From a phage, in assembly GCA_021081985.1 (NCBI GenBank), contig GCA_021081985.1_3639.1: DNA of 64,000 nt; one strand, given 5' to 3'. A model generated the notes under the pieces. The model searched no databases, was not told where the DNA came from, and saw only the letters and a program-made list of their open reading frames with translations. Below, in pieces: positions 147 to 15,299 of this stretch. A program made the position numbers and the translations under genes. How positions within the stretch are numbered: the stretch's first letter is position 1; each line of letters begins with the position of its first letter.

Positions 147-1472
147 TTAATATATAGGATCCCACGTCAAAGAATCTACCTCACGAACACATTTGCCAAC
201 AGGAAATTGCGGAACACCGTCATCGGTCCTTGCTTGGTATGTAAAAGTTATATACTTGCCGATAAGTTTTTTCATATTCTCTTGTGAGCGTTCTTCGTGT
301 GTGCCTCTCATCTTACAGTTAAATTGTGTACCATCCTTCTCAGCACACAACAGGACACCTTCTCCATTCTTATCCTCAAAGGAATCAAGAACTCTGGCCT
401 CACCATCCTGAAACAATTTCCACTTTTGAAGATCAGACGATCTTTGTCCAAACTCATACTTTCCGTGAAAGTTCCTTATTACAACACCCTCATAACCTGC
501 TTCCATAAACTCCTTGATGAGCATTTTAACACGATCCTCATCAGACACTATTGCTCCGTGCACTACTTTAATCAGGTTATAAGGCCATGTATACTCAGAG
601 ACTTTCTGTAAATTATTAAACCTACACTTGTCTGTGTCAGAAGACATCCATGGTGTGTCATCTTCCGAAGGTATATCGAAAATATGATATTCTAAGTCTA
701 AACTTGAATAACCACAATACTTATTAATATTTTTCTCTGGTTTCTTTGTGATAGGATGTTCTAACCCTTCGGAGTCTTTCCAAAACTCATCACCATTGTT
801 AATTGCTTTTTCAAATCGCTTTATGTCTGATTGATAGTCTTTTTCTATCTCACATTCTATCTCTTCTGGTGTTCTCCATTTCTTAGCCAAAGAGACTATT
901 TTCTGGAGACTTAACCCATGAATATACAACTCTCCATCAAACATTTTCAATCCTGTCTTTTTGGCTAGTTTAGACATCTGATCAAGCAATTGGCCTTGTA
1001 CAGGATATGTTTTATTGCCACGACTATTAAACACAGGCACGCCATCATCACCAACCAGAACAAGTGCTCTAACACCATCAAGTTTTGGTTGAACATGCAA
1101 AGGATACACTAAAGAACTTTTCCTTTTGATGGCATCATGTGCCAGCATTGGTGAGAAATCTTGGGTTTTTGTAAGATCATCCTTAGATACGCGATACCCA
1201 AGGCGTACTTGTTTTTCCCACTTAGATTTTGCCTCCAAAACAGCTTGTTCTGTATCAGTTGTCTCATTTTTCTTACCGATGTTTTTGGCAAAGCATTTTG
1301 TGCGTTTATACTGCATTTTACCGTTTTCTTTACCAAACTCAACAACAGTTTCTGATCCATCTGCCCACACATTCCACACTTGATATGTACCATCCCTGTT
1401 TAGGGCGTATAGTGTTGGAAGGTTATTTTCAAGCATTAAATACCTCGCTTGTGACAACAGGTTTTCCTTCAA
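147..1472 (-). CDS. ATP-dependent ligase (nucleotidyltransferase superfamily)
   Basis: 441 aa; motif I KLDGVR (active-site Lys), motif IV EGVVIRN, motif V KWKLF. Confidence 0.75.
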   Translation of the reverse strand: MKENLLSQARYLMLENNLPTLYALNRDGTYQVWNVWADGSETVVEFGKENGKMQYKRTKCFAKNIGKKNETTDTEQAVLEAKSKWEKQVRLGYRVSKDDLTKTQDFSPMLAHDAIKRKSSLVYPLHVQPKLDGVRALVLVGDDGVPVFNSRGNKTYPVQGQLLDQMSKLAKKTGLKMFDGELYIHGLSLQKIVSLAKKWRTPEEIECEIEKDYQSDIKRFEKAINNGDEFWKDSEGLEHPITKKPEKNINKYCGYSSLDLEYHIFDIPSEDDTPWMSSDTDKCRFNNLQKVSEYTWPYNLIKVVHGAIVSDEDRVKMLIKEFMEAGYEGVVIRNFHGKYEFGQRSSDLQKWKLFQDGEARVLDSFEDKNGEGVLLCAEKDGTQFNCKMRGTHEERSQENMKKLIGKYITFTYQARTDDGVPQFPVGKCVREVDSLTWDPIY

Positions 1473-2214
1473 GGTGATTTTCTACCAACTCAATAAGTTT
1501 TTGGTTGCTGAATGCTTCAACTGCTCCACAGCGCATTTGGTACACACCATATTTATCATACTGCTCTTGTTCAAAGTAATTGATCGCTGGGTTTATTACA
1601 ACCAGTTTAATACCTCGTTTTGCGATTGCATGCAGCAATTCCCAGTTAAAGTCGATAACCTGATTAGAGCAGCCAACCAGAAGTACAAGATCTTGAGTAT
1701 TCAAGTCATCAAGCATGGTAAACATGTCCTGATAAAGTGGTGCATTCTCACCGAAAAATACCACATTTGGCTTGCACCACCAGTAATCATCAGGGTCAAC
1801 AACCGCATATCCGACATCAATCACACGTTTAGGAAACTCTTCACCATTCTGTACAACAAGCTCTTTGAGAAAACCATGTACATGGAGAATATCCTTCTTT
1901 TCAATGCCAGCACGTTCAAGCAGATCGTCAACGTTTGTTGTAAGATTACGTACTTGTCCAGGATAACGGTTATACCATTCTGCTACACGAAGATGTGCCA
2001 TGTTGGGGTGCACAGTCTTCAATTCTTCACGGCGTTTGTTATAAAATTCGTGTGTTTTGTGGTAAAAATTACCACGAAATGCATGAATATTACATACTTC
2101 TTCAAGATCATATTCATCCCAAAGAGCTTTACCTGACGAAGTATCTGTACGGAATGTGCGAATACCGCTTTCTGTTGACATACCTGCACCACTAATCACA
2201 AGTAATCGACGCAT
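1429..2214 (-). CDS. Sir2/sirtuin-family NAD-dependent protein
   Basis: 261 aa; N-terminal GAGMSTESGIRTFR matches the sirtuin NAD-binding signature. Confidence 0.75.
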   Translation of the reverse strand: MRRLLVISGAGMSTESGIRTFRTDTSSGKALWDEYDLEEVCNIHAFRGNFYHKTHEFYNKRREELKTVHPNMAHLRVAEWYNRYPGQVRNLTTNVDDLLERAGIEKKDILHVHGFLKELVVQNGEEFPKRVIDVGYAVVDPDDYWWCKPNVVFFGENAPLYQDMFTMLDDLNTQDLVLLVGCSNQVIDFNWELLHAIAKRGIKLVVINPAINYFEQEQYDKYGVYQMRCGAVEAFSNQKLIELVENHLEGKPVVTSEVFNA

Positions 2215-2222
2215 ATAACCAC

Positions 2223-2630
2223 CTATTGTAATTTTAAAGAGTTACGTAAACGTGCTTCTTGACGGTCACGAATAAACTGCGGGACATCATGAATGCTTTC
2301 GTTACCATGATAATTTTCCACAACTACAGATGTTACATCATAGCAGTAGTTTTCTGCTAAGTCAAGATAAGGTTTCAACTCTTTCGCAGAAGTTGTTGTG
2401 TTTGAAACAATAATCTTTTCAACTTCATTCTGCATGTGGAGTTCTACTTTGTCACGACACCATTGATGAGCTTTGTGGATATTTTCTTCTTTCCACTCAT
2501 ACACACCGTCTTCGGTGTAATGAAATTGGTCAGCTTCACACACAGGCCAACGACCATCATCAGACAACTCTTTAGCAAGAGTTGATTTTCCTGACCCAGA
2601 GACACCACGTAAAATAAATAACTTTTTCAT
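2223..2630 (-). CDS. small P-loop kinase, possibly polynucleotide 5'-kinase-like
   Basis: 135 aa; Walker A GVSGSGKST near N-terminus; sits between Sir2 and ligase-like genes. Confidence 0.55.
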   Translation of the reverse strand: MKKLFILRGVSGSGKSTLAKELSDDGRWPVCEADQFHYTEDGVYEWKEENIHKAHQWCRDKVELHMQNEVEKIIVSNTTTSAKELKPYLDLAENYCYDVTSVVVENYHGNESIHDVPQFIRDRQEARLRNSLKLQ

Positions 2631-2640
2631 TAGTTTTCCT

Positions 2641-2973
2641 TTAGTATTGGTGACGATAAAACTTTATACCTAAAGTGTTTTCGAAATATTCTCTCGCCAA
2701 CATAAACTTGTTCACGGCAGATGGGTTAGAGCTATGTACGTGAATCTCTTTAAGATTCGTAAACTTACCATCATGAAGCTCACGTTCAATATAGATGAAA
2801 GCATCGTAACCTTCCTCATCACCACCCAAATCATTATCAAAATGGATGGAATCAATGTCGCTATCACTCATAAATTTTAGTAATGAGTAGAAGCTAGAGA
2901 GATTCTTACACCATAAGGCATTAGGGTATCCATAATCTACTGGATTTCGCAGATCATCCAACCACAGTTTCAA
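2641..2973 (-). CDS. hypothetical protein in repair cluster
   Basis: 110 aa ORF tightly packed between kinase and ligase-like genes; no motif recognised. Confidence 0.45.
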   Translation of the reverse strand: MKLWLDDLRNPVDYGYPNALWCKNLSSFYSLLKFMSDSDIDSIHFDNDLGGDEEGYDAFIYIERELHDGKFTNLKEIHVHSSNPSAVNKFMLAREYFENTLGIKFYRHQY

Positions 2974-3902
2974 ATTGTACCTCCGAAAAAATCCTCAATA
3001 ATTTCACGACGGAATTGTTCATGCAAACATTCCCAATGTTCTTTAGAATAGTTATCACGCAAATAGTTTAAAAGGTTATAATACTCTTCGTCAACTTTCT
3101 TCTTAGCTTCTTCTGGGTTTCCCCAAATCATATCCCACTTGTTCTTACCGCCACGCATCAAAAATTTCTTCGCCAAATAGTGTGGTGATTTTATCTTCAA
3201 GAGAAGATCTTGCTGTCCTGTAGCAGCACGTACAACAAACCCTTCATGTTTGCATTCTTTAGACATTTTCAGGATGTCTGAAAAGTGCATATTTATGTAA
3301 GTCTCTGGTCGTTTAAAACCGAACTCTTTTGCGATAAGATCCAGAGCTTTTTCACTAAGCATAGAAGTTAATTTGTCTTTATGAAATCGAACACCAATCA
3401 AATACACACCTGCCTTTTCTGGTACAATGTGTGGGTCTGAAGGAGCGCAAATCTCAAAGATAAATGTTGTCTTTGGTTCTTCCACACATGATAACAACAT
3501 TGGCAAATTAGTACATTCTTCCATGATCATACCTTTTGCAAGTTTTGCAAAATCGGAATCTAGAGTTCCTGTTGTTGAAACAATTAGCTCACCATTGTAT
3601 GAGCTTACTGCTGCCATGAAGCCATTAACTTTACGTGCTGCATTCACAACCATATCTTTTGGAAGATCAGTACCGTTCTCTAAATGATTGAAAATCTTGG
3701 TAAAAGGCCACACAACGATGTTGTCATCACTGTCCACAACCATACCACGGCAATCAAGTAAGCGACTGTCTTGATCCCACAAGTTTTCCCAAAAAACTTT
3801 GTTACTGTATTTCAAAACAGACAAACCTTTAAACTCACCACTGGTATAAGTCTTCTTTTTGACAAGGCCTTTTGATACTAAATCTTCAACATTGAATTTC
3901 AT
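2970..3902 (-). CDS. ligase-family nucleotidyltransferase, likely RNA ligase
   Basis: 310 aa; motif I RKVNGF (KxNG), motif IV EGFVVR, motif V LLKIKSP. Confidence 0.6.
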   Translation of the reverse strand: MKFNVEDLVSKGLVKKKTYTSGEFKGLSVLKYSNKVFWENLWDQDSRLLDCRGMVVDSDDNIVVWPFTKIFNHLENGTDLPKDMVVNAARKVNGFMAAVSSYNGELIVSTTGTLDSDFAKLAKGMIMEECTNLPMLLSCVEEPKTTFIFEICAPSDPHIVPEKAGVYLIGVRFHKDKLTSMLSEKALDLIAKEFGFKRPETYINMHFSDILKMSKECKHEGFVVRAATGQQDLLLKIKSPHYLAKKFLMRGGKNKWDMIWGNPEEAKKKVDEEYYNLLNYLRDNYSKEHWECLHEQFRREIIEDFFGGTI

Positions 3903-4099
3903 TTGTCTTCACCGTCACTATTGTATGATTGTTTATTAAATGACTCAATTATACATGTTGATCGTCTTGCGTCAACAGATTGGCTTGTTAAATCTTTAGC
4001 AACAACTAGTTTTTCCACATCATCTTTTTTGATGGATCCGTAAGCACCAGAATCCATCATGAAGAATATTTTATCTTCTGTTATCTTGTGTATTTTCAT
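3899..4099 (-). CDS. hypothetical small protein
   Basis: 66 aa ORF, 4-nt overlap with upstream gene. Confidence 0.3.
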   Translation of the reverse strand: MKIHKITEDKIFFMMDSGAYGSIKKDDVEKLVVAKDLTSQSVDARRSTCIIESFNKQSYNSDGEDK

Positions 4100-4120
4100 T
4101 CATAAAATCTCAATAATTAT

Positions 4121-4699
4121 TCAATGGCCATCAGCAGTGAAAACGTCTTTTTCCATACACATTTGGTATGCTTCTGGCAGACCCAAAATTCTCCCATGTA
4201 CATCCCAACCAACATCAAGAATCCGTCCTTTCGCACTGTAAGATCCGTGACTGTGCCCATGCAAGAACACAGACCCATAGTGAGATTTATTCCACGCGGC
4301 AAACGGGTAATGACTCATACAAATTTTTTGTTCATAATCGTTAAATTCGTAATAATCGCACACATCATGACCACGTTTTTTGAATGTTTTAATCGCATCA
4401 AAATTGTCATGATTACCTTTGACAAGGACGATATGCCCAACAAGTTCATCAAGAATTTCTTCAAGTCTTTTAATAACTTGCTTGCCACGACCAAAACAAA
4501 AATCACCAAGCACAAAAGTCACAGTATCGGCATCTGCGCCGTGGTTAAATTTCACTGTGAGGTCTTGGTTCATTTGTTCAACGGTTTTGTACAAATCACC
4601 ACGAAAACGTTTTGAACTCTCAAAGTTCAGGATGTTTTTATGCCAGTAATGTAAATCAGATGTTACACGGTATTTGGTTCCCATTTCTCTCTCCCTCAC
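4121..4699 (-). CDS. calcineurin-like metallophosphoesterase
   Basis: 192 aa; GDxxxGR, GNHD and GHSH metal-binding motifs. Confidence 0.75.
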   Translation of the reverse strand: MREREMGTKYRVTSDLHYWHKNILNFESSKRFRGDLYKTVEQMNQDLTVKFNHGADADTVTFVLGDFCFGRGKQVIKRLEEILDELVGHIVLVKGNHDNFDAIKTFKKRGHDVCDYYEFNDYEQKICMSHYPFAAWNKSHYGSVFLHGHSHGSYSAKGRILDVGWDVHGRILGLPEAYQMCMEKDVFTADGH

Positions 4700-4709
4700 A
4701 CAACAAAAA

Positions 4710-5147
4710 TCACTGTCGCTCTAACAAATCTTCTGCTGGATAAGCATACAGCATGTATTCCCAACCACGATGGTAATGTCTGTGTTGCCAGTTGATTAAT
4801 TTTAGACACACAATGTTCACCACGTTCCTGTCCCCATGGATAAAAACACAAGTCTCAAGGATTGACTTTCCAAACTCAACATGACTGTCAAGATACAGTT
4901 TTGTGTTGTATCTTTTTTCAGCATCCAGCATGATCTGTTTCAAGGCCAGAAATGCCTCGCAACACACAGATTTTTCATCAGAAATCATTTTGATATTCAA
5001 GCATTCACCCCCACACAGGCAACCACGCAAATCGTGTCTGATCACCACAACACAATCGGTTTGAAACAAACCTGTTTGACACACAACAGGCATCGTCGTA
5101 GTGTCATGCCTAAACACAGACAGATATGATACGACGAAGATCCCCAC
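4710..5147 (-). CDS. hypothetical Cys-rich protein
   Basis: 145 aa ORF, several Cys pairs; first gene downstream of the AT-rich control region on the minus strand. Confidence 0.4.
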   Translation of the reverse strand: MGIFVVSYLSVFRHDTTTMPVVCQTGLFQTDCVVVIRHDLRGCLCGGECLNIKMISDEKSVCCEAFLALKQIMLDAEKRYNTKLYLDSHVEFGKSILETCVFIHGDRNVVNIVCLKLINWQHRHYHRGWEYMLYAYPAEDLLERQ

Positions 5148-5362
5148 ACAGAGTCACATAGTGACTTGTGACAACCCGAATCCATGATTGAGATAAACAC
5201 ACAGAGACAAACCTGTAGGGTTTGTTGATGTGGGTTTATCTCAGAATGGCTCATGAGGGTTAGATGATCACAAGCTATCAGCGCAGTGAGCATCTTACAC
5301 ACTCACGTATTGCCTGAAGAGTCTCATCGACTCATGCTTTCAGGCAAAACACTATGAACTCT

Positions 5363-5406
5363 ATGATTCGAAATCATCGAACCATACGATTCGACTCAAT
5401 CGAATC
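5363..5406. repeat. palindromes ATGATTcgaAATCAT and GATTCGA-n5-TCGAATC
   Basis: Perfect inverted repeats read directly in the divergent intergenic region. Confidence 0.6.
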
Positions 5407-5493
5407 ATATCAACAAAAATATTTAAAATCAAGTCTTGACATTCTTCAAGACTTAATGTATTTTAAATAAATTTTATATAATATATTATTATA

Positions 5494-5596
5494 TATAATA
5501 CGTAGTATTATATTATATTAAATTATATTATATAATTTATATTATATTAGATCATATTAAATAGATCATAGTATTATAATACGTAGTATTATATTT
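5494..5596. repeat. AT-rich direct repeats (aatacgtagtattatat x2, tagatcat x2)
   Basis: Two copies of a 17-19 nt unit about 80 bp apart in an almost pure AT stretch. Confidence 0.6.
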
Positions 5597-5644
5597 AATA
5601 GATCTTATAAGTTAGTTTAATTTGATCAGTTAGTATTGTGTCCC

Positions 5645-5689
5645 CAAAACGGGGACATACCCATGTCCCTGAAATGGGGACATATGGGA
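5645..5689. promoter_or_regulatory. paired hairpin/operator-like sites GTCCCC-n-GGGGAC
   Basis: gtccccaaaacggggaca and gtccctgaaatggggaca in tandem just upstream of a TTGACA box. Confidence 0.4.
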
Positions 5690-5693
5690 GGGG

Positions 5694-5722
5694 TTGACAT
5701 TGTGTGGGGTTATGGGTAGCAT
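5694..5722 (+). promoter_or_regulatory. sigma70-like promoter candidate
   Basis: TTGACA, 17-nt spacer, TAGCAT. Confidence 0.35.
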
Positions 5723-6129
5723 TCTCGGTGTTGGATTACACACCGGAGTTTGCCTTGAAATCTAATGTTGGGGGTTTCCATGTAAATCCGAAAGCTGGGT
5801 CATACATCGCTGTCCCGACAGAGTGGGTTTTTGATGAACGGTTATCACCAAGCGATCTGCAAAGATTGATACGCTTGTTGTGGAGATACGAGTATTTCAA
5901 GAATCTGAACCCTCTGGGTGGGGAACTGGTATTCTTTCCGTCACAACAATCCTTGTGTGGCCTGTTGGGGTGGAATGAAAACTCACGAACCAAAGTGTCT
6001 GAATTTCTGTCTCGGATGGAGAGCTTTGGTTATATCAGGCGTGTTAGATCAGGATTTCAGGATTCTGATGGTAACGTGAAACCAAGAAATTATATTATCG
6101 TCAATCGTATCAGAGGGGATAAATCATGA
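5704..6129 (+). CDS. hypothetical protein
   Basis: 141 aa ORF, 4-nt overlap with the downstream Prs-like gene; start uncertain because it overlaps the promoter-like site. Confidence 0.4.
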   Translation: MGLWVAFSVLDYTPEFALKSNVGGFHVNPKAGSYIAVPTEWVFDERLSPSDLQRLIRLLWRYEYFKNLNPLGGELVFFPSQQSLCGLLGWNENSRTKVSEFLSRMESFGYIRRVRSGFQDSDGNVKPRNYIIVNRIRGDKS

Positions 6130-6935
6130 ATATTCGTTTGAGTTTGAACAAGCTACATGTGCCAGTTGACCATTTCACATTTAGTGGTGGTGAGGAGCAG
6201 ATTAAGATCGATATGCGTCATGTTCCGCATGGTTCGATAGGTTTTGTTGATATCTTCGCTAGACTCAAGAACTCACAGGATGTGATGTGTTTGGCACTGC
6301 TTGTTGATGCAGTTAATCGTCTTGGCAATTTGGATGTTGGTGTGGAAAAGGTTTTACACCTGCCGTACATTCCGTATGCTCGACAAGACCGAGTTATGAA
6401 CCCTGGAGAATCTCTGTCGGTGAAAGTCTTTGCCACAATGATTAACTCGCTTGGTTTCCACAAAGTCATCGTCGATGATCCACACAGTGACGTATCCGCA
6501 GCACTGATTGATAACGTGAAAATTCGTTCTCAGACTGATTTGTTCTTGAACATGAATTTTGATTTTGATCTGCTTACGGACGAATCGCTTGTGTTGGTTG
6601 CTCCAGATGCAGGTGCACGCAAGAAGACCCAGAAGGTTGCTGATACCTTGGAACTATCTGTGGTTGAAGCAGGTAAAATCCGTGATGTGGGAACAGGGGC
6701 AATCACAGGCACAACAGTGTTTGGTGATGTTGGTGGGAAGACATGCCTGATTGTCGATGATATCTGCGATGGTGGGTTTACGTTTACAAACTTAGCTCAA
6801 GCCTTGAAAGCTGCTGGTGCAAAACGTGTTATTTTGTATGTTACGCATGGAATTTTCTCTCGTGGGAAAGAATTTATTCTCGACGGTGGTGTTGACGAAA
6901 TTTATGCATACTACGACTGGACAGAAAATTTTTAA
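6126..6935 (+). CDS. PRPP-synthetase-like phosphoribosyl pyrophosphokinase
   Basis: 269 aa; PRPP-binding signature LVAPDAGA and IVDDICDGG. Confidence 0.7.
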   Translation: MNIRLSLNKLHVPVDHFTFSGGEEQIKIDMRHVPHGSIGFVDIFARLKNSQDVMCLALLVDAVNRLGNLDVGVEKVLHLPYIPYARQDRVMNPGESLSVKVFATMINSLGFHKVIVDDPHSDVSAALIDNVKIRSQTDLFLNMNFDFDLLTDESLVLVAPDAGARKKTQKVADTLELSVVEAGKIRDVGTGAITGTTVFGDVGGKTCLIVDDICDGGFTFTNLAQALKAAGAKRVILYVTHGIFSRGKEFILDGGVDEIYAYYDWTENF

Positions 6936-6999
6936 GTTGGTATTGACAAAGATACGTTTTAGTGAAAAAATACGTTTTTAGGATTGGAGGGTTGAGATC

Positions 7000-8715
7000 A
7001 TGCTTCACAAAGAAAGTCCATTGCTGTTTGCAGATTTTTATAAACCAAGTCACATCTCGATGTACGACAAACGTTCACAGTTTGTTCAAGACAACATGAC
7101 ACCACGCAATGCGAAACACTTTGTACACTTTGCAGATGATGACCATCGTGTAATGTTTGCTGGTCTTCAGGGATTTATCAAGTGGTTCCTGATTGACATG
7201 TTTAATAATAATTTCTTTGCTTTACCGAAAGAAAAGGCGATTCAGGATTACAAAGAGATTTGTGATTTGAGCATTGGGAAGGATGCTGTTGAAACTTGGG
7301 GTTTTGAGAGATTGCATGATCTTGGATATCTCCCAATTGAAATTAGAGCTTTGCCTGAAGGAACTCTTGTTCCTGTTCAGGTTCCTATGTTCACGATTCA
7401 GAACACGCACCCTGATTTTTACTGGCTGCCAAACTTCCTTGAGAGCGTGATCTCCTCGGAGACTTGGAAGACAATTACCACGGCAACGACTTTCTGGCAA
7501 TATCGTAAACTATCAGAACTGTGGGCAAAGAAAACATGTGATAACAACGATCACGTTCCTTTCCAGAACCATTGTTTTGCATACCGTGGTGAAGCTGGAA
7601 CACATGACGCAGCACAGAGCGAATTTGGGCAACTGATTAGCTCAATGGGCACAGATACAATTCCAGCGATTGTTTACGCAAATCGCTATTACAACATGAA
7701 AGGTCGCTTTGTTGCTGGGTCTATTCCCGCATCTGAGCATAGCGTAGCGACAACGAACATTGGTTTTATTGTTGAGCGTATCCAGCAGGAAAATCCTGAC
7801 ATGTCGCTTGCTGAAGCACGTTTTCGTGCTGAAGTTGAGTTCTTAAAGCGTTATGCAACAGAGATTTTTCCGTCAGGCTATGCTTCATACGTCGCAGACA
7901 GCTATGATTTTTGGGCAATCATTACACAAGCAGCCAAAATCCTGAAAGATGAGATTATGTCTCGTGATGGCAAGCTGGTCTTCCGACCGGACAGTGGGAT
8001 CCCAGAGCACATCATTGCTGGCTATCGTGTGTGCTCTCAGGAAGAATGGGCAACGGGACAGTGCTGTGATATGGATGCTGTGCTGTTTAAAAATGGCAAA
8101 TATGTCACTCTGTACGAGATGTCCAGAGACACTTCTTGGATGCGAGATTCGGAAGGCAACCTCGTAGATTGGAAATCTTTGACAGGTGATGAATTTACAA
8201 ATTATCTTACCAAAGAGGAGGTTAAGGGTGCTGTACAATGCTTGTGGGAAATCTTTGGTGGTAGTGTAAACTCTTTGGGTTACAAAGTTCTTGATAGCCA
8301 TGTTGGTTTAATCTACGGAGACTCTATCACAATCTCTCGTGCTAAAGAGATCTTTGAGCGCCTTGAAGAACGAGGCTTTGCTTCCAGCAACATTGTGTTT
8401 GGTGTAGGATCTTATACAACGCAATATACAACCCGTGATTCTCTTGGGATGGCTGTAAAAGCTACTGGTGCTGTGATTGATGGCAGACAAGTAATGGTTG
8501 TAAAAGAGCCTAAGACTGATCTTGGGAAGAAATCTGCGAAAGGTTTTGTTAAAGTTATTCGTGGTGATGATGGTGAGTTGAAGCTGGTAGATAATCTTGG
8601 TATTAATCAGGTATCTGACCCTGACAACGAGCTTAGAACAGTTTTTGTTAATGGTAAGCTGCTTGTGGATGAGGATCTTGAAGAAATTCGTCAAAGAGCT
8701 TTGTCACAGCTTTAG
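7000..8715 (+). CDS. nicotinamide phosphoribosyltransferase family protein
   Basis: 571 aa; N-terminus LFADFYKPSH and overall length typical of NAMPT/NadV. Confidence 0.75.
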   Translation: MLHKESPLLFADFYKPSHISMYDKRSQFVQDNMTPRNAKHFVHFADDDHRVMFAGLQGFIKWFLIDMFNNNFFALPKEKAIQDYKEICDLSIGKDAVETWGFERLHDLGYLPIEIRALPEGTLVPVQVPMFTIQNTHPDFYWLPNFLESVISSETWKTITTATTFWQYRKLSELWAKKTCDNNDHVPFQNHCFAYRGEAGTHDAAQSEFGQLISSMGTDTIPAIVYANRYYNMKGRFVAGSIPASEHSVATTNIGFIVERIQQENPDMSLAEARFRAEVEFLKRYATEIFPSGYASYVADSYDFWAIITQAAKILKDEIMSRDGKLVFRPDSGIPEHIIAGYRVCSQEEWATGQCCDMDAVLFKNGKYVTLYEMSRDTSWMRDSEGNLVDWKSLTGDEFTNYLTKEEVKGAVQCLWEIFGGSVNSLGYKVLDSHVGLIYGDSITISRAKEIFERLEERGFASSNIVFGVGSYTTQYTTRDSLGMAVKATGAVIDGRQVMVVKEPKTDLGKKSAKGFVKVIRGDDGELKLVDNLGINQVSDPDNELRTVFVNGKLLVDEDLEEIRQRALSQL

Positions 8716-8728
8716 CAGCATAATCATT

Positions 8729-8751
8729 CCCCTCCGCACGGAGGGGTTTTT
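8729..8751 (+). terminator. rho-independent terminator
   Basis: CCCCTCCG-cac-GGAGGGG followed by TTTTT. Confidence 0.7.
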
Positions 8752-8769
8752 CATTCCTAGGAGAGCGTT

Positions 8770-8976
8770 TTGAGAAATTTCGTAGTCAAGCACGACAGAA
8801 ACCGTGCATCAGTCCACACAGACATGAAAAAAGCGTGGGAGCCAGATATCCTTGACGGACTAGAAGAACATTACATCGAAGTCGGTCTTTGCAAGGATGC
8901 CTCATGTGACCTTTCCCCTCATGAGATTGCAGTAGCAGAATACGAACGTGGTGTCAAGGCTTCTGGAATAGTTTAA
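8770..8976 (+). CDS. hypothetical small protein
   Basis: 68 aa ORF. Confidence 0.3.
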   Translation: MRNFVVKHDRNRASVHTDMKKAWEPDILDGLEEHYIEVGLCKDASCDLSPHEIAVAEYERGVKASGIV

Positions 8977-9044
8977 TTGACAAAAATAAACACCACTGAT
9001 AAGATCTAATAACAAGATAAAAATAAAGTTAGTGGTGATTTGTT

Positions 9045-9293
9045 ATGTTTAAATTAAAAATGGTTCTTAAGTCTGATAACGGGGAGTACGTAGAACATGA
9101 GTCTTTTCATAAAACACATGATGATGCGCTTGAAGAAGCGGATGATGTCGCTTTTTCTACAACTGGTTTTGGAATTGAATCCTGGAAATATATTGCATCG
9201 TTCGGTGAAGAAGGCGGGTTATATTATTTCTACCCCATCGAAGGGATTAGTACAACAAAGTACGTTATCAGGATCCTTAGAACAACCGTATAA
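9045..9293 (+). CDS. hypothetical small acidic protein
   Basis: 82 aa ORF. Confidence 0.3.
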   Translation: MFKLKMVLKSDNGEYVEHESFHKTHDDALEEADDVAFSTTGFGIESWKYIASFGEEGGLYYFYPIEGISTTKYVIRILRTTV

Positions 9294-9575
9294 AAATCGT
9301 AAACAAAGACGTGCAGAAGCTGCAATGAAAAGATCACGGAGAAAAGTAAGATGACCAAAACGTATACTGAAGAGACGCATAAACAAGTTGAGTTGTTGCT
9401 TTGTAGGTTACAACAGTGTATTGACAGAGTTCGTATTTTACGTTTTGAGTTTGAAAATAATATCTCTTAATGTGAGGAATGTATGAGAAAAGGTATTGAT
9501 TTTGAAAAAGAAGTTGGTTTCGGGGAAGGGTGTCATCAAGAAGAAAATTGGGATGTTTAAAATTTTAAAATATCT

Positions 9576-9604
9576 CTTGACAATGTAGATCATACAGGAT
9601 AACA
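9576..9604 (+). promoter_or_regulatory. sigma70-like promoter upstream of tRNA-Met
   Basis: TTGACA, 17 nt, TAACAT, about 22 nt before the tRNA 5' end. Confidence 0.5.
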
Positions 9605-9626
9605 TCATCTCATACCAAAGAGATAC

Positions 9627-9702
9627 GGCCCCTTAGCTCAGTGGTTAGAGCAGGTGACTCATAATCGCTTGGTCGCTGGTTAAAGTCCAGCAGGGGCCAC
9701 CA
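9627..9702 (+). tRNA. tRNA-Met (CAU)
   Basis: Acceptor GGCCCCT/AGGGGCC, anticodon loop CTCATAA, T-arm GGTTAAAGTCC, encoded CCA. Confidence 0.8.
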
Positions 9703-9754
9703 AATGTGGCACACGAAATAAACTAGGTTTATTGTTTTCGGAGGAGAAAACTTA

Positions 9755-10078
9755 ATGGCTAAGAAACAGTCTGCTAAAAAGGTATCAGCTATCGAGGCGA
9801 TCAAGCAACCTTTTCAGTTTGAATCAAAATCCACGCAGACACATTCTGCACCGCACGATGTGCGTCTTGGTGGCAAAACGCAAACTGTAGCAGTTCTGAA
9901 AAAACGCAAAGATGAAGACGGTAATACTGAAATGTATTATGAATCTGTGTCTCGTGTCATTGGTGGTGAAGTGATTTCTGCTTCCTATCGTATCCGTACT
10001 GGGAAAACAAAGCGTGAACGAGAAGTGAAACAGAAAACAAGCACTCCTGTAGGAAACGTTAAGAAAACTAAAAAATAA
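9755..10078 (+). CDS. hypothetical Lys-rich basic protein
   Basis: 107 aa ORF directly after tRNA-Met. Confidence 0.4.
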   Translation: MAKKQSAKKVSAIEAIKQPFQFESKSTQTHSAPHDVRLGGKTQTVAVLKKRKDEDGNTEMYYESVSRVIGGEVISASYRIRTGKTKREREVKQKTSTPVGNVKKTKK

Positions 10079-10154
10079 TTTACTGACGAGAGTGCCACCG
10101 TGAGCCAGCGTCATTAAACAAAGGGAATCACGGACATTCAGGAGGGTTGAGATT

Positions 10155-10346
10155 ATGATAGGATCTTTGCTTAAGATTGCAAGCGATGTAACAACAACGG
10201 CTGTTGAAGTGACTGCTGCGGTAACAACTCCGTTTGTTGATTTAGCATCAGATGCTATAGCAGCAGCAGACGAGATGATTTTGTCACCGACATCTGATCT
10301 TGTCCAAGATCTTTGTGATTCTATAAAAGATGCTGTAAAAGATTAA
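10155..10346 (+). CDS. hypothetical small acidic protein
   Basis: 63 aa, rich in Asp/Glu/Ala/Thr. Confidence 0.35.
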   Translation: MIGSLLKIASDVTTTAVEVTAAVTTPFVDLASDAIAAADEMILSPTSDLVQDLCDSIKDAVKD

Positions 10347-10354
10347 AATTTTTC

Positions 10355-10383
10355 TTGACATAGTTTTTGTTTTTCTGTATAGT
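10355..10383 (+). promoter_or_regulatory. sigma70-like promoter
   Basis: TTGACA, 17 nt, TATAGT. Confidence 0.55.
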
Positions 10384-10419
10384 TACTTTATCAAAGCTAA
10401 TTTACATAGGAGAGATTGA

Positions 10420-11067
10420 ATGTCTACTAAGATTTCCGTAACTCGTGCACTTGCTTCTATCTCTAAGATTGAAGATAAGATCAATAAGCGCATTTATAAC
10501 CTTGAATGTATTAAGATTGCAAAAGGAACTGAGAATAATTGTAAGATTCCTGGTTATATCGGCTCTGTTGATGATTTTAAGAAATCTGCGATCAACGACT
10601 ATCAAAGTCTGCAAGACCTCTTGGCAGTTCGCGATGAACTGAAGGCAAAAATTGTCAAGTCTAATGCTGAGACAATTGTCAAAATTGGTAAGGTGTCTAT
10701 GACAGTTGCTGAGGCAATCGAACGCAAACGGACGATTTGCTTTAAACAAGAGTTGTTAAACAAACTTTGTGCACAGCGTGCTTCTGCACAGCTTCTTCTG
10801 GCAAAAGAAGAAAAATCTCTGGAAGATAAACTTGAAAATGCCAGAGCGCCATATATCCAACGTGATAAAGCGCCAGATGCAGAGCAGATTAAGACTGTGG
10901 AAGCTCCCATTCGAATGATGAACACACCATCGGTTGTGGATCCTCTTGAACTGGCTTCTAAGATTCGTTCTCTTGAAGAAGAGATTGAAGATTTCTTGTC
11001 TAACGTTGATTTTGCGTTGTCTGAGTCAAACGCTAAGACAGAAATTGAGATTGAGCACTCTCTCTAA
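10420..11067 (+). CDS. hypothetical coiled-coil protein
   Basis: 215 aa, charged and helix-rich. Confidence 0.5.
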   Translation: MSTKISVTRALASISKIEDKINKRIYNLECIKIAKGTENNCKIPGYIGSVDDFKKSAINDYQSLQDLLAVRDELKAKIVKSNAETIVKIGKVSMTVAEAIERKRTICFKQELLNKLCAQRASAQLLLAKEEKSLEDKLENARAPYIQRDKAPDAEQIKTVEAPIRMMNTPSVVDPLELASKIRSLEEEIEDFLSNVDFALSESNAKTEIEIEHSL

Positions 11068-11432
11068 AAGGCTCTGATAATATCATTATCGTTCCTTTGT
11101 TTTGAAATTTAAAACATTGCTTTTGATTAACGAAGTTTACATCATCTTGCCTCCTGGGGATTGGAGGTTAAATATTCCCCACCATGTATCGTATATGTAT
11201 GAGGATAATACAGAACATAGATGCAGCGAGGCACACGAAGATGCTTTGTTGTTTCCACTAAGTAAAAGTTCATACAATAAAGGTCAATGGTTAAATGTGA
11301 AAGATGAAACTTGAAAGTTGACTCTTGAAAGATAAAATTTCGTTTATCATCTGAAATCCTTGACACAGGTTATGGCTCACAAGATATGGTCTGTAAAGCC
11401 TCAAGGCTGTTAATCGGAAGCAATGTCTTATT

Positions 11433-11507
11433 GCTCGTATAGCTCAACGGTAGAGCACCTGCCTTGTAAGCAGGGGGTTGCAGGTTCGAAACCTGCTGCG
11501 AGCACCA
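11433..11507 (+). tRNA. tRNA-Thr (UGU)
   Basis: Acceptor GCTCGTA/TGCGAGC, D-arm GCTC..GAGC, anticodon loop CTTGTAA, T-arm GCAGGTTCGAAACCTGC, CCA. Confidence 0.8.
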
Positions 11508-11509
11508 AT

Positions 11510-11606
11510 GCTGGGTAAGCCCTTTGGCAAGGGCGAGGATTTATAATCCTGAAAATAGACGGGCTAGCCGTTGAATACATAGGTGGTTCGATTCCATCAC
11601 CCAGCC
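11510..11606 (+). ncRNA. non-canonical tRNA-like RNA
   Basis: tRNA-type acceptor (GCTGGGT/ACCCAGC), D-arm and T-arm (GGTGGTTCGATTCCATC), but the anticodon position is a closed hairpin AGGATT-tat-AATCCT followed by a second tight hairpin; about 97 nt, no CCA. Confidence 0.4.
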
Positions 11607-11807
11607 ACAAGTTTGTTTTATAGTGTATTAGCTTATATTATTCGATATAAATGCCTGATCAGCATTTGTTGTGAATGAGGCATACAATGCGTGAGAAAGC
11701 TATCGGTGCGCAACGTTGATTTCAAACGTAGTCATGCTCGTAGAGCACCAACTGTGGAAGTTGGAGGGTGGTTGAGTAACCATACACTATAAAGCATTCT
11801 TTAAAAT

Positions 11808-11892
11808 GGGCGGTGTCCCCACACAAGTCTTCTAAACTTGTACTTAAAAAGTGGGAAGGAAGTGAGAGGTTCGATTCCTCCACCGTCTACCA
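11808..11892 (+). ncRNA. non-canonical tRNA-like RNA
   Basis: 3' end TTCGATTCC...ACCGTCTACCA with a pairing 5' segment GGGCGGT, no D-arm, internal hairpin ACAAGT-cttctaa-ACTTGT. Confidence 0.3.
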
Positions 11893-11968
11893 GATTAACC
11901 CCAACTTGAGAATCGTCAGCGCGGCTCGTAAGACCCACTCTATAGGTTCTCTACCTGGGGTGCTTATT

Positions 11969-12045
11969 GCACGGTTGCCGGAATTTGGTTACGGGTCTGT
12001 CTGCAAAACGGATATATGTCGGTTCAAGTCCGACACCGTGCTCCA
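11969..12045 (+). tRNA. tRNA-Cys (GCA)
   Basis: Acceptor GCACGGT/ACCGTGC, anticodon arm TCTGT-CTGCAAA-ACGGA, T-arm GTCGGTTCAAGTCCGAC, CCA; D-stem imperfect. Confidence 0.65.
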
Positions 12046-12082
12046 AACTTTCAATTTCTTGGCAAATATGTTAAAATACCAC

Positions 12083-12111
12083 TTGACAGATATGTTTTTA
12101 TTTGATAATAT
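12083..12111 (+). promoter_or_regulatory. sigma70-like promoter
   Basis: TTGACA, 17 nt, TAATAT, followed by RBS and ATG at 12132. Confidence 0.6.
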
Positions 12112-12131
12112 CATTAAGTGGGGTTTTTAAA

Positions 12132-12479
12132 ATGGCTACTAAGCAGCTTACAAAACGTAGAAGAGGAAAAGGTCGTCCTCTGAAAGAGGAATCTAATGCA
12201 ATTCAGTTAGAGAAAAATATCCTAGATTTGAAAACGAATCTGATTGCAATGATTCCTGAAGCTCATCAGGTTCTTAGGGATTTGATGAAGAATGTGAATA
12301 CAAAAGACAATATCAGAGAAAATATCGCTCGTTATGTTATTGAGAAAGGTGAGCAGATGCTTTCTGATTACTTTGATGAGGAAAACGAAGAGTTACTCGA
12401 AAAAGATAACTCAGAAAAAGCGCCTATTAAGGCAGCCAAACCATTCTCGACGGATATTGTTCAATTCAAACAAGGTTAA
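12132..12479 (+). CDS. hypothetical protein with basic N-terminus
   Basis: ORF track 12102..12479; start moved to the ATG after the promoter and RBS (MATKQLTKRRRGKGRP...). Confidence 0.45.
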   Translation: MATKQLTKRRRGKGRPLKEESNAIQLEKNILDLKTNLIAMIPEAHQVLRDLMKNVNTKDNIRENIARYVIEKGEQMLSDYFDEENEELLEKDNSEKAPIKAAKPFSTDIVQFKQG

Positions 12480-12480
12480 T

Positions 12481-12570
12481 GTGTCGTTAGACCGTAGGGG
12501 TAGCGGGGGAGACTGTAAATCTCCTGTCTCGAAAGGGACTCGGGTAGTTCGACTCTATCACGGCACACCA
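12481..12570 (+). tRNA. tRNA-Tyr (GUA), type II
   Basis: Acceptor GTGTCGT/ACGGCAC, anticodon arm GGAGA-CTGTAAA-TCTCC, long variable arm, T-arm GGTAGTTCGACTCTATC, CCA. Confidence 0.75.
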
Positions 12571-12638
12571 ACTAAATCTGTACTGGCTTTGATGTGTGAC
12601 GATACCCTCCAATCGTGGTTGTTGGGTCAGTACAGTTT

Positions 12639-12714
12639 GGGAGTGTAGATCAGTTAGTAGATCGCTCGACCGATAATCGAGAGGACGTAGGGGCAGAGCC
12701 TACCACTCCCACCA
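12639..12714 (+). tRNA. tRNA-Ile (GAU)
   Basis: Acceptor GGGAGTG/CACTCCC, D-arm GATC..GATC, anticodon arm CTCGA-CCGATAA-TCGAG, CCA; position 33 is C and the T-loop is atypical. Confidence 0.6.
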
Positions 12715-12719
12715 AATAT

Positions 12720-12794
12720 GCATCCATAGTTTAATTGGGAAAACTACAGCCTTCCAAGCTGAAGTCGAGGGTTCGATGCCCTCTGGATGCTCCA
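12720..12794 (+). tRNA. tRNA-Gly (UCC)
   Basis: Acceptor GCATCCA/TGGATGC, anticodon loop CTTCCAA, T-arm GAGGGTTCGATGCCCTC, CCA. Confidence 0.75.
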
Positions 12795-12919
12795 GTTAAA
12801 AGATGTCAATGAAATCCGCTTGGGTCAACTGAAGACCGTAACAAATTCCATGGGGTTGTGTTTGCGGTCCAACCCTAGACATCTTCTATCTTTAGTAGAA
12901 GGCTTTAATACGGACGAGT

Positions 12920-13150
12920 ATGATGGTTTCTAAATTAATCATAACAAGGCATCATAATGCTAAAGAAATAGAGATTGTGAATGCTGCTGGCACTCTTGTG
13001 CTAAAAGTTGGTAAAGACTGTCCTTTTGAATTGTGCCAGAAGGAACTTTTAAGTTTGTGCGGTTTCAGGTTTAAACAGATTATCTTTGAAAATGCTTTTC
13101 AATATTCAGACTTAAACCAGTACATTATATCTAGGCTTGATCCTGCATGA
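12920..13150 (+). CDS. hypothetical small protein
   Basis: 76 aa ORF, 4-nt overlap with the next gene. Confidence 0.35.
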   Translation: MMVSKLIITRHHNAKEIEIVNAAGTLVLKVGKDCPFELCQKELLSLCGFRFKQIIFENAFQYSDLNQYIISRLDPA

Positions 13151-13704
13151 GATACTTGAAATATTTATCTTGGATCCTGTTAGCACCTCTTGATCCAATT
13201 ATGTCGGCTCTCTGTGTTATTCTGGCTCCTTTTGTTGTTCCGTTCTATAATGAGAAGACAGGGCATCTACCCTATATTTTCAGGTGGATGGAAACATATG
13301 ATAATCCTATAGACGGTGACAGAGGACACATAGAGAGATGGGAAGAAGTCCGTAAAATAGGAAGTTTTGGTGTTTACCTACAACGAGTTGCTTGGTTGTG
13401 GAGAAATAAAGCCTACAATTTTTCCTATCACGTACTTGGACGTGAAATCGCATCTGTGACAAAGTGGAAAGGAAACATCCATGTAAGCTCTGATGTGGAG
13501 GATAATCAACAAGGCTATTTGTTGATGTGGAATGACAATGCGTGGGGTGTATTCGCGTTTGTCCCGTCTTTTAGATTGTTTGGAAAACAATTTTACTGGC
13601 GAATTTATGTCGGTTGGAAACTGAAGAGTGTGGTTCCTGAAGACAGAGCTTTTTCAAGAGAGAGGGTGATGTTGGCATTTTTCATAAGTCCTTTCCGAAA
13701 ATAG
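13147..13704 (+). CDS. hypothetical membrane protein
   Basis: 185 aa, hydrophobic N-terminal segment LSWILLAPLDPIMSALCVILAPFVVPF. Confidence 0.45.
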   Translation: MRYLKYLSWILLAPLDPIMSALCVILAPFVVPFYNEKTGHLPYIFRWMETYDNPIDGDRGHIERWEEVRKIGSFGVYLQRVAWLWRNKAYNFSYHVLGREIASVTKWKGNIHVSSDVEDNQQGYLLMWNDNAWGVFAFVPSFRLFGKQFYWRIYVGWKLKSVVPEDRAFSRERVMLAFFISPFRK

Positions 13705-13710
13705 TTTTTA

Positions 13711-13792
13711 ATGAGAGTAGCGTAACTTCACTGGGTGAAGGCTGGCCTCCAAAACCAGTGACTAAGAGGTTCGATTCCTCACTCTCGTGCCA
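13711..13792 (+). tRNA. tRNA-like, possibly tRNA-Trp (CCA)
   Basis: Acceptor ATGAGAG/CTCTCGT, loop CTCCAAA, T-arm GAGGTTCGATTCCTC, CCA; D-region is over-long and non-canonical. Confidence 0.4.
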
Positions 13793-13793
13793 A

Positions 13794-13869
13794 AGGGGAT
13801 TAGCATAGTGGCCTAATGCAACGGGCTTTGACCCCGTGATCGGTTGTTCGAATCAACCATCCCCTGCCA
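13794..13869 (+). tRNA. tRNA-Gln (UUG)
   Basis: Acceptor AGGGGAT/ATCCCCT, D-arm GCAT..ATGC, anticodon arm ACGGG-CTTTGAC-CCCGT, T-arm GGTTGTTCGAATCAACC, CCA. Confidence 0.8.
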
Positions 13870-13878
13870 AGTTAAAAC

Positions 13879-13968
13879 GGAGAAGCAAATCGATTGGCGA
13901 CGAAACCACATTGGAAATGTGCTGACTGGTAAAACGGCTTGAGAGTTCGATTCTCTCCTTCTCCACCA
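13879..13968 (+). tRNA. tRNA-Ser (GGA), type II
   Basis: Acceptor GGAGAAG/CTTCTCC, anticodon loop TTGGAAA, long variable arm, T-arm GAGAGTTCGATTCTCTC, CCA. Confidence 0.7.
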
Positions 13969-13982
13969 GTTTTTAAGGATTT

Positions 13983-14726
13983 ATGTATGCACTCTCCCCA
14001 AGAAAAAAAAATGGAAAACAGATATTTAATTTGTTGAAAAGCGGAAAAGGCTTCTCAAACCCGCTTCAATCAGGTCTTTCTCTGGTTGGTGGTAAAGTAA
14101 GTAGTCTATCTTCTTTATCTTCCTCTATTTCTTCGGTAACTAACCCAGCTATAAAGGCTCAATTAGCTGCCGCAGGTTTGACAACTGGCGTTTTATCAAA
14201 TTTTACTTCGTCTCTTGGTTCTGTTACAAGCACGACAAAAACGCTTGTTGATTATGGTCAGAAATCTGTTGAAGAGTTCTCCCAAAGAATGCACGCAGCG
14301 AGTAATTATATGAGTACTCTGAGCAGAATGGGAGAAAAGACAAGTTGTTCAATATTTAGTGACGTTATGTCTGTAGCCACTGATTTAGGTAAGAAAGCTA
14401 TGGATGCCGTTAATTCCGCGATGGATGCGGTGAACGATGTTATGTCTCAATTGCAAGATGCAATAAATAAGGGTTTGAATACAATATCTAGTTTGGCGAG
14501 TAAAGCTGTCTCAGCGATAAACAAAGGGATCCAGAAAATGTCTGAGTATGCTAGCCAAGTGACAAAGATGATTGAAGATGAAGCAAAGAAGTTGGCAGAC
14601 TACTTAAAGACAAGTGCTGAAGGATTTCTCGCAGATATCCTACCTGATTGGTTTAACGATTCTTGTAAATCTGGTATAGTTGACCAGATTGCTACACCAG
14701 AGATGAAAGAAGTTCTTAAAAAGTAA
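13983..14726 (+). CDS. hypothetical protein with Ser/Thr-rich N-terminus and amphipathic helical repeats
   Basis: 247 aa; repeated AMDAVN/SAINKG-type helices. Confidence 0.5.
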   Translation: MYALSPRKKNGKQIFNLLKSGKGFSNPLQSGLSLVGGKVSSLSSLSSSISSVTNPAIKAQLAAAGLTTGVLSNFTSSLGSVTSTTKTLVDYGQKSVEEFSQRMHAASNYMSTLSRMGEKTSCSIFSDVMSVATDLGKKAMDAVNSAMDAVNDVMSQLQDAINKGLNTISSLASKAVSAINKGIQKMSEYASQVTKMIEDEAKKLADYLKTSAEGFLADILPDWFNDSCKSGIVDQIATPEMKEVLKK

Positions 14727-14728
14727 TT

Positions 14729-15290: not shown

Positions 15291-15299
15291 AAATATTCA

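Follow-up and report, generated by a model that had tools for sequence, protein, structure and literature searches.

A divergent early-transcription region with a putative iteron-type replication origin in a Vequintavirinae phage

The intergenic region and its proposed function

The window (the whole 64-kb stretch of phage contig GCA_021081985.1_3639.1 that was analysed) contained an intergenic region at about 4989-5754, lying between a leftward cluster of DNA ligase and RNA-repair genes and a rightward cluster of nicotinamide adenine dinucleotide (NAD) salvage genes that opens with a gene for a small winged-helix protein. On balance, this region is read as a divergent early-transcription hub that carries an iteron-type replication-origin cassette. 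The winged-helix protein very probably binds two tandem semi-palindromic units at 5639-5683, promoter activity in the region is strongly indicated, and function as an origin is somewhat favoured. No origin has been defined for the subfamily Vequintavirinae in the literature.

The window belonged to a Vequintavirinae phage with about 95% DNA identity to Escherichia phages Av-05 and vB_EcoM_TH18 (TH18). Coding was leftward as far as about 5000, rightward between about 5750 and 53.8 kb, and leftward again beyond. The rightward block contained, in order, the winged-helix gene, ribose-phosphate pyrophosphokinase (Prs), nicotinamide phosphoribosyltransferase (NadV), 14 tRNA genes, and then the lysis, terminase and structural genes. 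The main elements were as follows:

5404-5432, minus strand: leftward promoter P_L (TTGATT, 17 nt, TATGAT, with an upstream TG), start predicted at about 5397 by promoter scan
5436-5464, plus strand: rightward promoter P_R1 (TTGACA, 17 nt, TATTTT), start predicted at about 5471, reading into the AT-rich core
5455-5635, no strand: AT-rich core with an exact 21-mer repeat and GATC boxes at 5550, 5564, 5601 and 5624, GC 5-11%
5607-5616 (ATAAGTTAGT) and 5625-5634 (ATCAGTTAGT), plus strand: direct repeats 18 bp apart, followed by ATTGT
5639-5657 and 5663-5683, no strand: two tandem 25-bp semi-palindromic units (dyads), TGTCCCC-aaaac-GGGGACA and ATGTCCC-tgaaatg-GGGACAT, with arms converging on an A/T-rich centre
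5694-5722, plus strand: rightward promoter P_R2 (TTGACA, 17 nt, TAGCAT), start predicted at about 5729, just outside a duplicated 554-bp module
5755-6129, plus strand: gene for the winged-helix protein of 124 aa (phrog_8453), with a predicted initiator-type fold resembling the RepA_N and DnaD N-terminal domains

In the proposed mechanism, host RNA polymerase would start leftward at P_L and run through a structured leader into the ligase and RNA-repair genes, and would start rightward at P_R1 and P_R2 into the winged-helix gene and the NAD-salvage genes. The winged-helix protein, probably as a dimer, would bind each 25-bp unit, and the bound units would abut the AGTTAGT repeats and a 180-bp tract of about 10% GC with its GATC boxes. 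Protein binding together with transcription from P_R1 would open the AT tract so that the phage replisome could load, and binding at 5639-5683 would also feed back on P_R2. It is the order of the parts (AT tract with GATC boxes, direct repeats, binding units, promoter, gene of the binder), taken with the initiator fold, that leads to the iteron-type origin reading. Relatives of this phage have genes for a family-A DNA polymerase like that of T7 and for a primase-helicase like gp4 (PMC3606486).

Covariation of the winged-helix protein with the tandem units

The strongest single result was the covariation between the recognition helix of the protein and the half-sites of the dyads. The half-sites were tabulated by hand, and the DNA alignment of eight phages shifts the second dyad by one column. 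Lineages in which the recognition helix starts with S-R-x (the window, KP13-16, P0023, F1M1E, phiTE, CR3 and Kashira) had half-sites of the form TGTnCC...GGnACA, and lineages in which it starts with S-Q-x (PVP-SE1, FENT2, KB57, Ro1, KNP2, Hena1, W70, P0041, P0003 and P0031) had TATnCC...GGnATA. The exception to the Gln pattern was one of the four half-sites of P0031, while SSBI34 was ambiguous. In the protein tree, the Gln members fell into about three clades apart from one another, and in every case the DNA had the corresponding C-to-T change; P0023, an Arg member that adjoins the PVP-SE1 Gln clade, had sites TGTTCC/GGAACA. Contacts of Arg with guanine and of Gln with adenine are the classical pattern. 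Since Arg/Gln tracks ACA/ATA over 16 lineages with about three independent switches, direct and sequence-specific binding of the units by the protein is very probable, and the units are predicted to be its binding sites, as iterons or as operators. A change of Arg78 to Gln should then shift the preference from ...ACA to ...ATA half-sites.

An earlier note on this DNA, made from the sequence alone, had suggested testing the adjacent small proteins for DNA binding, and judging from the covariation the winged-helix protein is the best candidate. The 141-aa product that the note started at 5704 is probably the 124-aa protein from 5755: homologues begin at the TTG at 5755, which has GGAG 7 nt upstream, and not at the GTG at 5704.

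Dyads of the 5639-5683 type were found nowhere else in the 64-kb window, not even at its other early promoters, and the 5000-5800 region had no second copy there. The lack of dyads elsewhere in the 64 kb suggests that the protein acts locally, as a global regulator would be expected to have more sites. The GTCCCC/GGGGAC hairpins were also considered as intrinsic terminators and rejected, as they had no T run and neither was called by the terminator scan. Their flanks were ATACCCAT and ATATGGGAGG on the plus strand and ACAATACT and ATGGGTAT on the minus strand.

Fold and family of the winged-helix protein

The AlphaFold2 model of the protein, built from 45 sequences, had a predicted local distance difference test (pLDDT) score of 87. 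The solved folds closest to the model were the DNA-binding domains of two RepA_N initiators, 4pta and 4ro3, while generic winged-helix regulators scored lower than the RepA_N domains (Crp family, about 7.7). The 4ro3 structure is the N-terminal domain of RepA from PLE, a phage satellite of Vibrio cholerae. This RepA has been shown by experiment to be a RepA_N initiator, is recognisable by structure only and has no sequence similarity to the family (PMC7145576).

Pfam searches gave sub-threshold helix-turn-helix matches only (TrmB, ArsR, MarR and Crp families). In PHROGs, the protein belonged to phrog_8453, a family with no assigned function, and had a weak match to a family named 'replication initiation protein'; its most distant relatives were assigned to PHROG families of replication initiators and of DnaD-like loaders. 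The family is small: a word-indexed search gave 44 clusters, and 1.84 billion proteins yielded 22 representative clusters. Like the protein itself, nearly all relatives had a single domain and a length of 112-156 aa, and a few distant ones of 220-273 aa had extra domains.

The AT-rich core and its repeats

No duplex in the 64 kb was less stable than the 100 bp at 5463-5562 (z = +6.8; the next had +3.1), and the AT core is a candidate DNA-unwinding element. Nearly all of its G and C residues lay in the four GATC boxes, two ACGTAG words and the two AGTTAGT repeats. Four GATC sites were clustered in 5550-5627, in DNA of about 10% GC, as in origins of the P1 oriR type. GATC boxes in the form AAGATCTT or TAGATCAT were present in the intergenic regions of all genera examined, with 2-5 per homologous tract. 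The AGTTAGT repeats were nearly invariant in the eight aligned phages (at least five genera) and were also found in L035, L037 and L038; AGTTAGT as a general promoter motif was rejected, as its genome-wide frequency was that expected by chance.

The near-pure AT tract described in the earlier note was recovered at about 5455-5635, with GC down to 5-6% per 100-nt window, and so were the two copies of aatacgtagtattatat, at 5497 and 5578 (spacing 81 bp), which lie inside the exact 21-mer at 5494-5514 and 5575-5595. The tandem hairpins at 5639-5657 and 5663-5683 and the TTGACA at 5694 were likewise found as described. The idea that the aatacgtagtattatat copies are iterons had to be given up: they lie in the least conserved part of the region, a stretch of the AT core that differs between close strains, and the units conserved across genera are instead the tandem dyads, the AGTTAGT repeats and the GATC boxes.

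The listed elements were confirmed as real and far beyond chance. None of 1000 dinucleotide-preserving shuffles of the AT core contained a repeat as long as the 21-mer (shuffle mean 11.1, highest value 19). For perfect stems of 6 bp or more, the counts were 9 in 5137-5454, where shuffles averaged 0.71, and 6 in 5636-5754, where they averaged 0.43. In neither part did any of 500 shuffles attain the count seen in the phage DNA, and the excess was about 13-fold on each side of the AT core. A DnaA box (TTATNCACA) with at most one mismatch was absent from the intergenic region of the window. One-mismatch matches occurred sporadically in four of seven other intergenic regions at no shared position, and those of PVP-SE1 and Hena1 lay inside dyads.

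Divergent promoters, operators and extent of the region

The elements around the promoters were as follows:

5363-5377 and 5388-5406, no strand: two GATTCGA-type palindromes, 23 bp apart, covering the P_L -10 box, the predicted start and the early transcribed region
5431-5454, no strand: palindrome with 9-bp arms, AAGTCTTGA-cattct-TCAAGACTT, overlapping the P_R1 -35 box and spacer
5726-5747, plus strand: stem-loop CGGTGT-tggattac-ACACCG, which begins the predicted mRNA and reaches into the Shine-Dalgarno sequence GGAG (5744-5747)

P_L, P_R1 and P_R2 gave sigma-70 matches in both directions, with -35 and -10 boxes at 16-18 bp and at conserved positions. The region held 7 promoter-like sites against 6.3 expected, which is not above chance, and the support for the promoters therefore comes from conservation. 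The TTGACA of P_R2 was invariant across the alignment of eight phages, and an equivalent of P_R1 was seen in PVP-SE1, FENT2, KB57, Ro1 and KNP2. P_L stood back-to-back with the rightward -35 box, as did strong leftward promoters in PVP-SE1, KB57, W70, CR3 and Hena1. At the position of the stem-loop at 5726-5747, a third operator-like dyad was found instead in PVP-SE1, KB57, Hena1 and FENT2.

The description of the region as a divergent promoter with several operators is well supported by these sigma-70 matches conserved in position, by the palindromes over the promoter cores, and by non-coding DNA that was more conserved than the flanking genes. The GATTCGA-type palindromes are candidate operators of P_L. 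The perfect palindrome GATTCGA-ctcaa-TCGAATC was present at 5388-5406. ATGATT-cga-AATCAT was located correctly at 5363-5377; with arms of 6 bp around a 3-nt spacer, it is an inverted repeat and no palindrome in the strict sense. The region had been put at about 550 bp; its non-coding nature stood, and its true span is wider, at about 4989-5754. On the left side, only the C-terminal 92 codons of the open reading frame (ORF) at 4710-5147 were homologous to a real gene (PVP-SE1 gp101), which places the start at the ATG at 4988.

Seven perfect TTGACA promoters with 17-bp spacing were present on the plus strand, at 5436, 5694, 6943, 8977, 9577, 10355 and 12083, through the NAD-salvage and tRNA region. 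Together (P_R1 and P_R2 included) they look like a series of early promoters.

Conservation across genera

The gene order of leftward DNA ligase, RNA ligase and phosphoesterase genes, intergenic region, and rightward winged-helix gene (mostly followed by Prs and NadV) was found in 13 other phages, namely PVP-SE1, KB57, phiTE, W70, CR3, Hena1, Ro1, KNP2, Kashira, KP13-16, SSBI34, F1M1E and FENT2, which represent Seunavirus, Mydovirus, Certrevirus, Henunavirus, the W70 group and others. The same order was present in an independent metagenome scaffold of 137.9 kb, and scans of IMG/VR returned known isolates only. The intergenic DNA could be aligned across genera at 68-88% identity and was single-copy in nearly all of those records.

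The intergenic regions of the other genera were shorter (270-370 bp) and had one common plan, which from left to right consisted of a strong leftward promoter, GATC boxes in AT-rich DNA, dyads, TTGACA-17-TAnnnT and the winged-helix gene. The dyads upstream of the promoter numbered one or two and were preceded by ...TATTGT, and one clade also had two nearly invariant ATAAGTTAGT repeats. The layout was conserved across more than 12 genera. The dyads occupied the same position in every genus examined and differed in sequence, with centres AAAAC, TTTTTG, AAAAAA and similar, and their distance to the -35 box of the P_R2-type promoter was 6-11 bp across phages.

Phages of the V5 genus had no detectable homologue of the winged-helix gene, the intergenic DNA or the first leftward gene. 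The rV5 record (DQ832317, 62706-76909) had a different local order, with a small 'GntR-like' regulator (ORF79) downstream of the phosphoesterase gene and a divergent point at about 66.7 kb, between ORF81 and the RNA ligase gene. A preprint on the V5-like phage Bas54 describes a divergent intergenic region, about 2 kb long, that is transposon-free (bioRxiv 10.1101/2025.11.20.689424). Homology of that region to the present locus could not be established, given the undetected V5-genus homologues and the different order in rV5.

The duplicated module and the public assemblies

Most of the region forms part of a larger repeated unit:

5137-5690, no strand: 554-bp module, of which genomes of the Av-05/TH18 lineage have two copies, inverted relative to each other

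Homology broke at 5133-5137 on the left and at 5690 on the right, with two different flanks on each side. The left flank was either the ligase cluster or the peg110 cluster, and the right flank was either P_R2 with the winged-helix gene or the 3' end of peg1. These two left and two right neighbours show that the module is not a direct terminal repeat. The second copy, about 54 kb from the first, was bounded by the 3' end of TH18 peg1 and by the start of the peg110 cluster. The copies were identical over the 120 bp that are comparable in TH18, which may in part reflect the assembly. The second copy kept P_L with its leader, P_R1, the AT core, both AGTTAGT repeats and the dyads, and it is without P_R2; the dyads are thus retained where no winged-helix promoter exists to regulate.

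Many public assemblies broke at the module. An 82.6-kb ENA contig ended exactly at 5137, other contigs started at about 5632 and 5646, and six Logan contigs with a peg110 homologue stopped about 60 nt into the module. The ligase-module-NAD arrangement of the window was that of all other genera and of an ENA scaffold (L025). The 11 contigs with the winged-helix gene, in four distinct arrangements, either had ligase-module-NAD or were broken at or inside the module, and none had peg110-module-NAD.

The TH18 record ON075799 (133,882 bp) equalled OK136180 (79,447 bp) and OK136181 (54,435 bp) placed end to end. Its join left a 106-bp hole in the AT core, and the relative orientation of the two parts was unlike that in all other genera. 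In the Av-05 record (KM190144/NC_025830), window positions 5137-19972 mapped in reverse and 27671-35749 forward. The terminase gene was cut at the start of this record, the ligase cluster was missing, and one module hairpin was left beside the peg1 homologue. The record was probably mis-assembled through the 554-bp repeat, and since it is also rearranged in other places, its peg110-module-NAD arrangement was not counted in favour of genome flipping. The inverted duplication of 554 bp and the extreme AT core explain the breaks and mis-joins in public assemblies (Av-05, TH18 and 18-1-2).

Alternative explanations and comparison with known systems

The region may instead be a purely transcriptional control region, in which the winged-helix protein autoregulates the rightward early operon at operators flanking P_R2; this explanation is possible, though doubtful. 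The GATTCGA and AAGTCTTGA palindromes would then be operators of other regulators at P_L and P_R1, GATC methylation would tune the promoters, and the AT tract would be an upstream promoter element, bent DNA, a silencer or an insulator, with replication starting elsewhere or by recombination. It accords with promoters that are consensus matches at conserved positions, with palindromes that overlap the P_L core and the P_R1 -35 box, with dyads directly upstream of a -35 box and a third copy past the start in the four phages named above, and with a protein that is a single DNA-binding domain with weak Pfam matches to regulator families; the covariation, moreover, speaks for binding and not for the effect of binding. 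However, the best structural matches of the protein are initiator DNA-binding domains and not repressors, the units have the shape of RepA_N iterons (PMC7145576), and the variable distance between dyad and -35 box means that there is no fixed promoter phasing. The second module copy has dyads and AT core but no P_R2, and 180 bp at 5-10% GC far exceed what an upstream promoter element needs.

Several results weigh against an origin. The third dyad of the PVP-SE1-like phages lies in the 5' untranslated region, downstream of the start, which suits plain autorepression. No conserved DnaA box or IHF consensus was found across the intergenic regions scanned, and P_R1 was not evident in every genus (for example Hena1). 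The centre of the AT core varies between strains, while its flanks exceed the neighbouring genes in conservation (Av-05 lineage). With regard to the protein, a Foldseek search of the PDB gave nothing at E <= 0.001, the best full-length template modelling score (TM-score) still being that of 4pta; Pfam RepA_N (PF06970) was not matched at E <= 1 by the protein and seven homologues; and profile sequence searches of the PDB did not retrieve 4pta or 4ro3. The protein is also a DNA-binding domain alone, without the C-terminal domain that RepA_N initiators are thought to use host-specifically. The cumulative GC-skew minimum fell at 5447, inside the region, but it coincides with the switch in the direction of transcription and so gives no independent information on an origin; in the rV5 genome paper, skew analysis for an origin was also uninformative (PMC3606486). 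As for the suggestion in the earlier note that the region looks like an origin, it is plausible in view of the initiator-type fold and of the RepA_N-iteron-shaped repeats beside an extreme AT tract, the function itself being putative.

A recombination element, in which the two inverted 554-bp copies invert a segment of 54-79 kb, or a packaging site like P1 pac with methylation-sensitive GATC boxes, is very unlikely. The TH18 lineage does carry two inverted copies, both flank combinations exist in the records (ligase-module-NAD in the window and L025, peg110-module-NAD in Av-05), and the GATC boxes are clustered. But the Av-05 record is otherwise rearranged and probably mis-joined through the repeat, and peg110-module-NAD was absent among the 11 contigs with the winged-helix gene. 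The other genera have the same architecture in single copy, so the conserved function cannot depend on two copies. Packaging in particular was rejected as unlikely because the terminase genes are about 13 kb from the intergenic region and because contig ends scatter over 5186-5663 with no single cut site. A non-functional AT-rich spacer with repeats due to chance, low complexity or assembly is scarcely credible. Although repeats arise readily in low-complexity DNA, and the middle of the AT core is variable among strains and a frequent breakpoint of assemblies, neither the repeat length nor the hairpin counts were equalled in any shuffle, and this explanation was already contradicted by the architecture shared across genera, the protein-DNA covariation and the non-coding DNA that is more conserved than neighbouring genes.

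The cassettes of iteron plasmids and of P1 (pSC101, pPS10, P1 oriR) consist of an AT tract with GATC sites, iterons, a rep promoter with inverted-repeat operators and the rep gene. The same order is found here (AT tract with clustered GATC boxes, direct repeats, promoter dyads, gene of the binder), with the function predicted. The present region differs from these cassettes in having no conserved DnaA or IHF sites, in its much smaller protein of unrelated sequence, and in belonging to a lytic phage. The primary origin of T7 has tandem promoters followed by an AT-rich tract, and T4 oriF and oriG have a promoter with a downstream unwinding element. Here too, transcription from a strong promoter (P_R1) would enter the least stable DNA of the region; unlike the T7 and T4 origins, P_R1 is a host sigma-70 promoter that is not evident in all genera, and a sequence-specific binder with repeats is present in addition. 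Divergent early control regions with operator arrays are known from lambda OL/OR. The back-to-back promoters, the overlapping palindromic operators and the small regulator gene beside its own sites are alike, whereas the winged helix here is of initiator type and an AT tract of 180 bp with GATC boxes lies between the promoters. As the phage is virulent, the region is not a lysogeny switch.

The iterons of RepA_N systems are semi-palindromic direct repeats with inverted arms that converge on a poly-A tract (PMC7145576). The two units here, with a period of 25 bp, have this shape, and the same shape with A/T-rich centres was found in all genera examined. The RepA_N iteron origins of pSK41, pTZ2162 (PDB 4pta) and PLE RepA (4ro3) likewise have tandem semi-palindromic repeats with arms towards an A/T tract (PMC7145576), and in PLE RepA, as here, the similarity is visible in structure and not in sequence. 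The present system differs from them in its 124-aa protein, which is a DNA-binding domain only (no C-terminal domain, no Pfam RepA_N match), in having two units (three in some genera) that lie upstream of the promoter of the gene and not inside the rep gene, and in its setting in a large lytic enterobacterial phage. The RepA_N family is described as rare in Gram-negative systems (PMC7145576), and a domain-minimal RepA_N-like protein across a subfamily of enterobacterial lytic phages would widen this picture. Going by the structural model, what appears to be new is that lytic phages of Gram-negative hosts carry an iteron/initiator-like cassette whose RepA_N-like protein is minimal.

A bolder proposal is that the 124-aa protein represents a minimal new class of initiator (a RepA_N-like domain alone) at the Vequintavirinae origin, where it would act together with host transcription across the AT tract to load a T7-like replisome, and that the origin module is duplicated in inverted orientation in the Av-05 lineage. 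This proposal is speculative and rather unlikely. If it were true, a phage of the Av-05 lineage would have two origins and a 554-bp inverted repeat able to flip at least 54 kb. V5-like phages are candidates for therapy and biocontrol against E. coli, Salmonella, Klebsiella, Cronobacter and Pectobacterium, and the locus offers a candidate origin and initiator.

The leftward leader and other observations

Downstream of P_L, the module contained a further structured part:

5137-5400, minus strand: structured leader or non-coding RNA region, with a hairpin of 25-bp arms at 5189-5243 and a hairpin at 5311-5346

RNA folding of 5137-5400 was more stable than that of shuffled sequences on the minus strand (z = -8.9; -107.1 against -69.3 kcal/mol) and on the plus strand (z = -7.2). 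Identity between strains was about 97-98% in this part (hand count from the alignment) and about 95-96% in the flanking DNA. The leader sits where other genera carry a gene of the PVP-SE1 gp100 family; the idea that the leader is a remnant of such a gene was rejected, as tblastn found no trace. Coding was also rejected, since the frames seen by eye and in the ORF list were short or implausible and none had a ribosome-binding site. A permissive Rfam 15 scan of 4500-6500 gave two chance-level matches to microRNA models (21 bits against gathering thresholds of 76 and 100; E = 0.29 and 0.88). Through the duplication, the 264-nt leader precedes two different clusters of early genes. Possible roles are those of a processed leader, of an antitermination element or of a discrete non-coding RNA. 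Just left of the 554-bp module, at 5058-5091 on the minus strand, there were terminator-like hairpins with a U-rich run, and leftward transcripts from P_L might end there before the first leftward gene, giving an RNA of about 330 nt.

The left-hand cluster (147-4699, minus strand) encoded DNA ligase, a Sir2-family protein, an AAA_33 kinase-like protein, a cREC_REC-domain protein, a T4-type RNA ligase 1 and a metallophosphoesterase. The cluster lies opposite the NAD-salvage genes and looks like an RNA/DNA repair or counter-defence set. The 14 tRNA genes formed a cluster on the plus strand at 9627-15958. A second switch of the coding strand, from plus to minus, was located at 53789-53893, together with the cumulative GC-skew maximum (53893), which mirrors the minimum at 5447. 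In all six Septuagintavirus (W70-group) records, the intergenic query matched at two places, and partial duplication of the intergenic region may extend beyond the Av-05 lineage.

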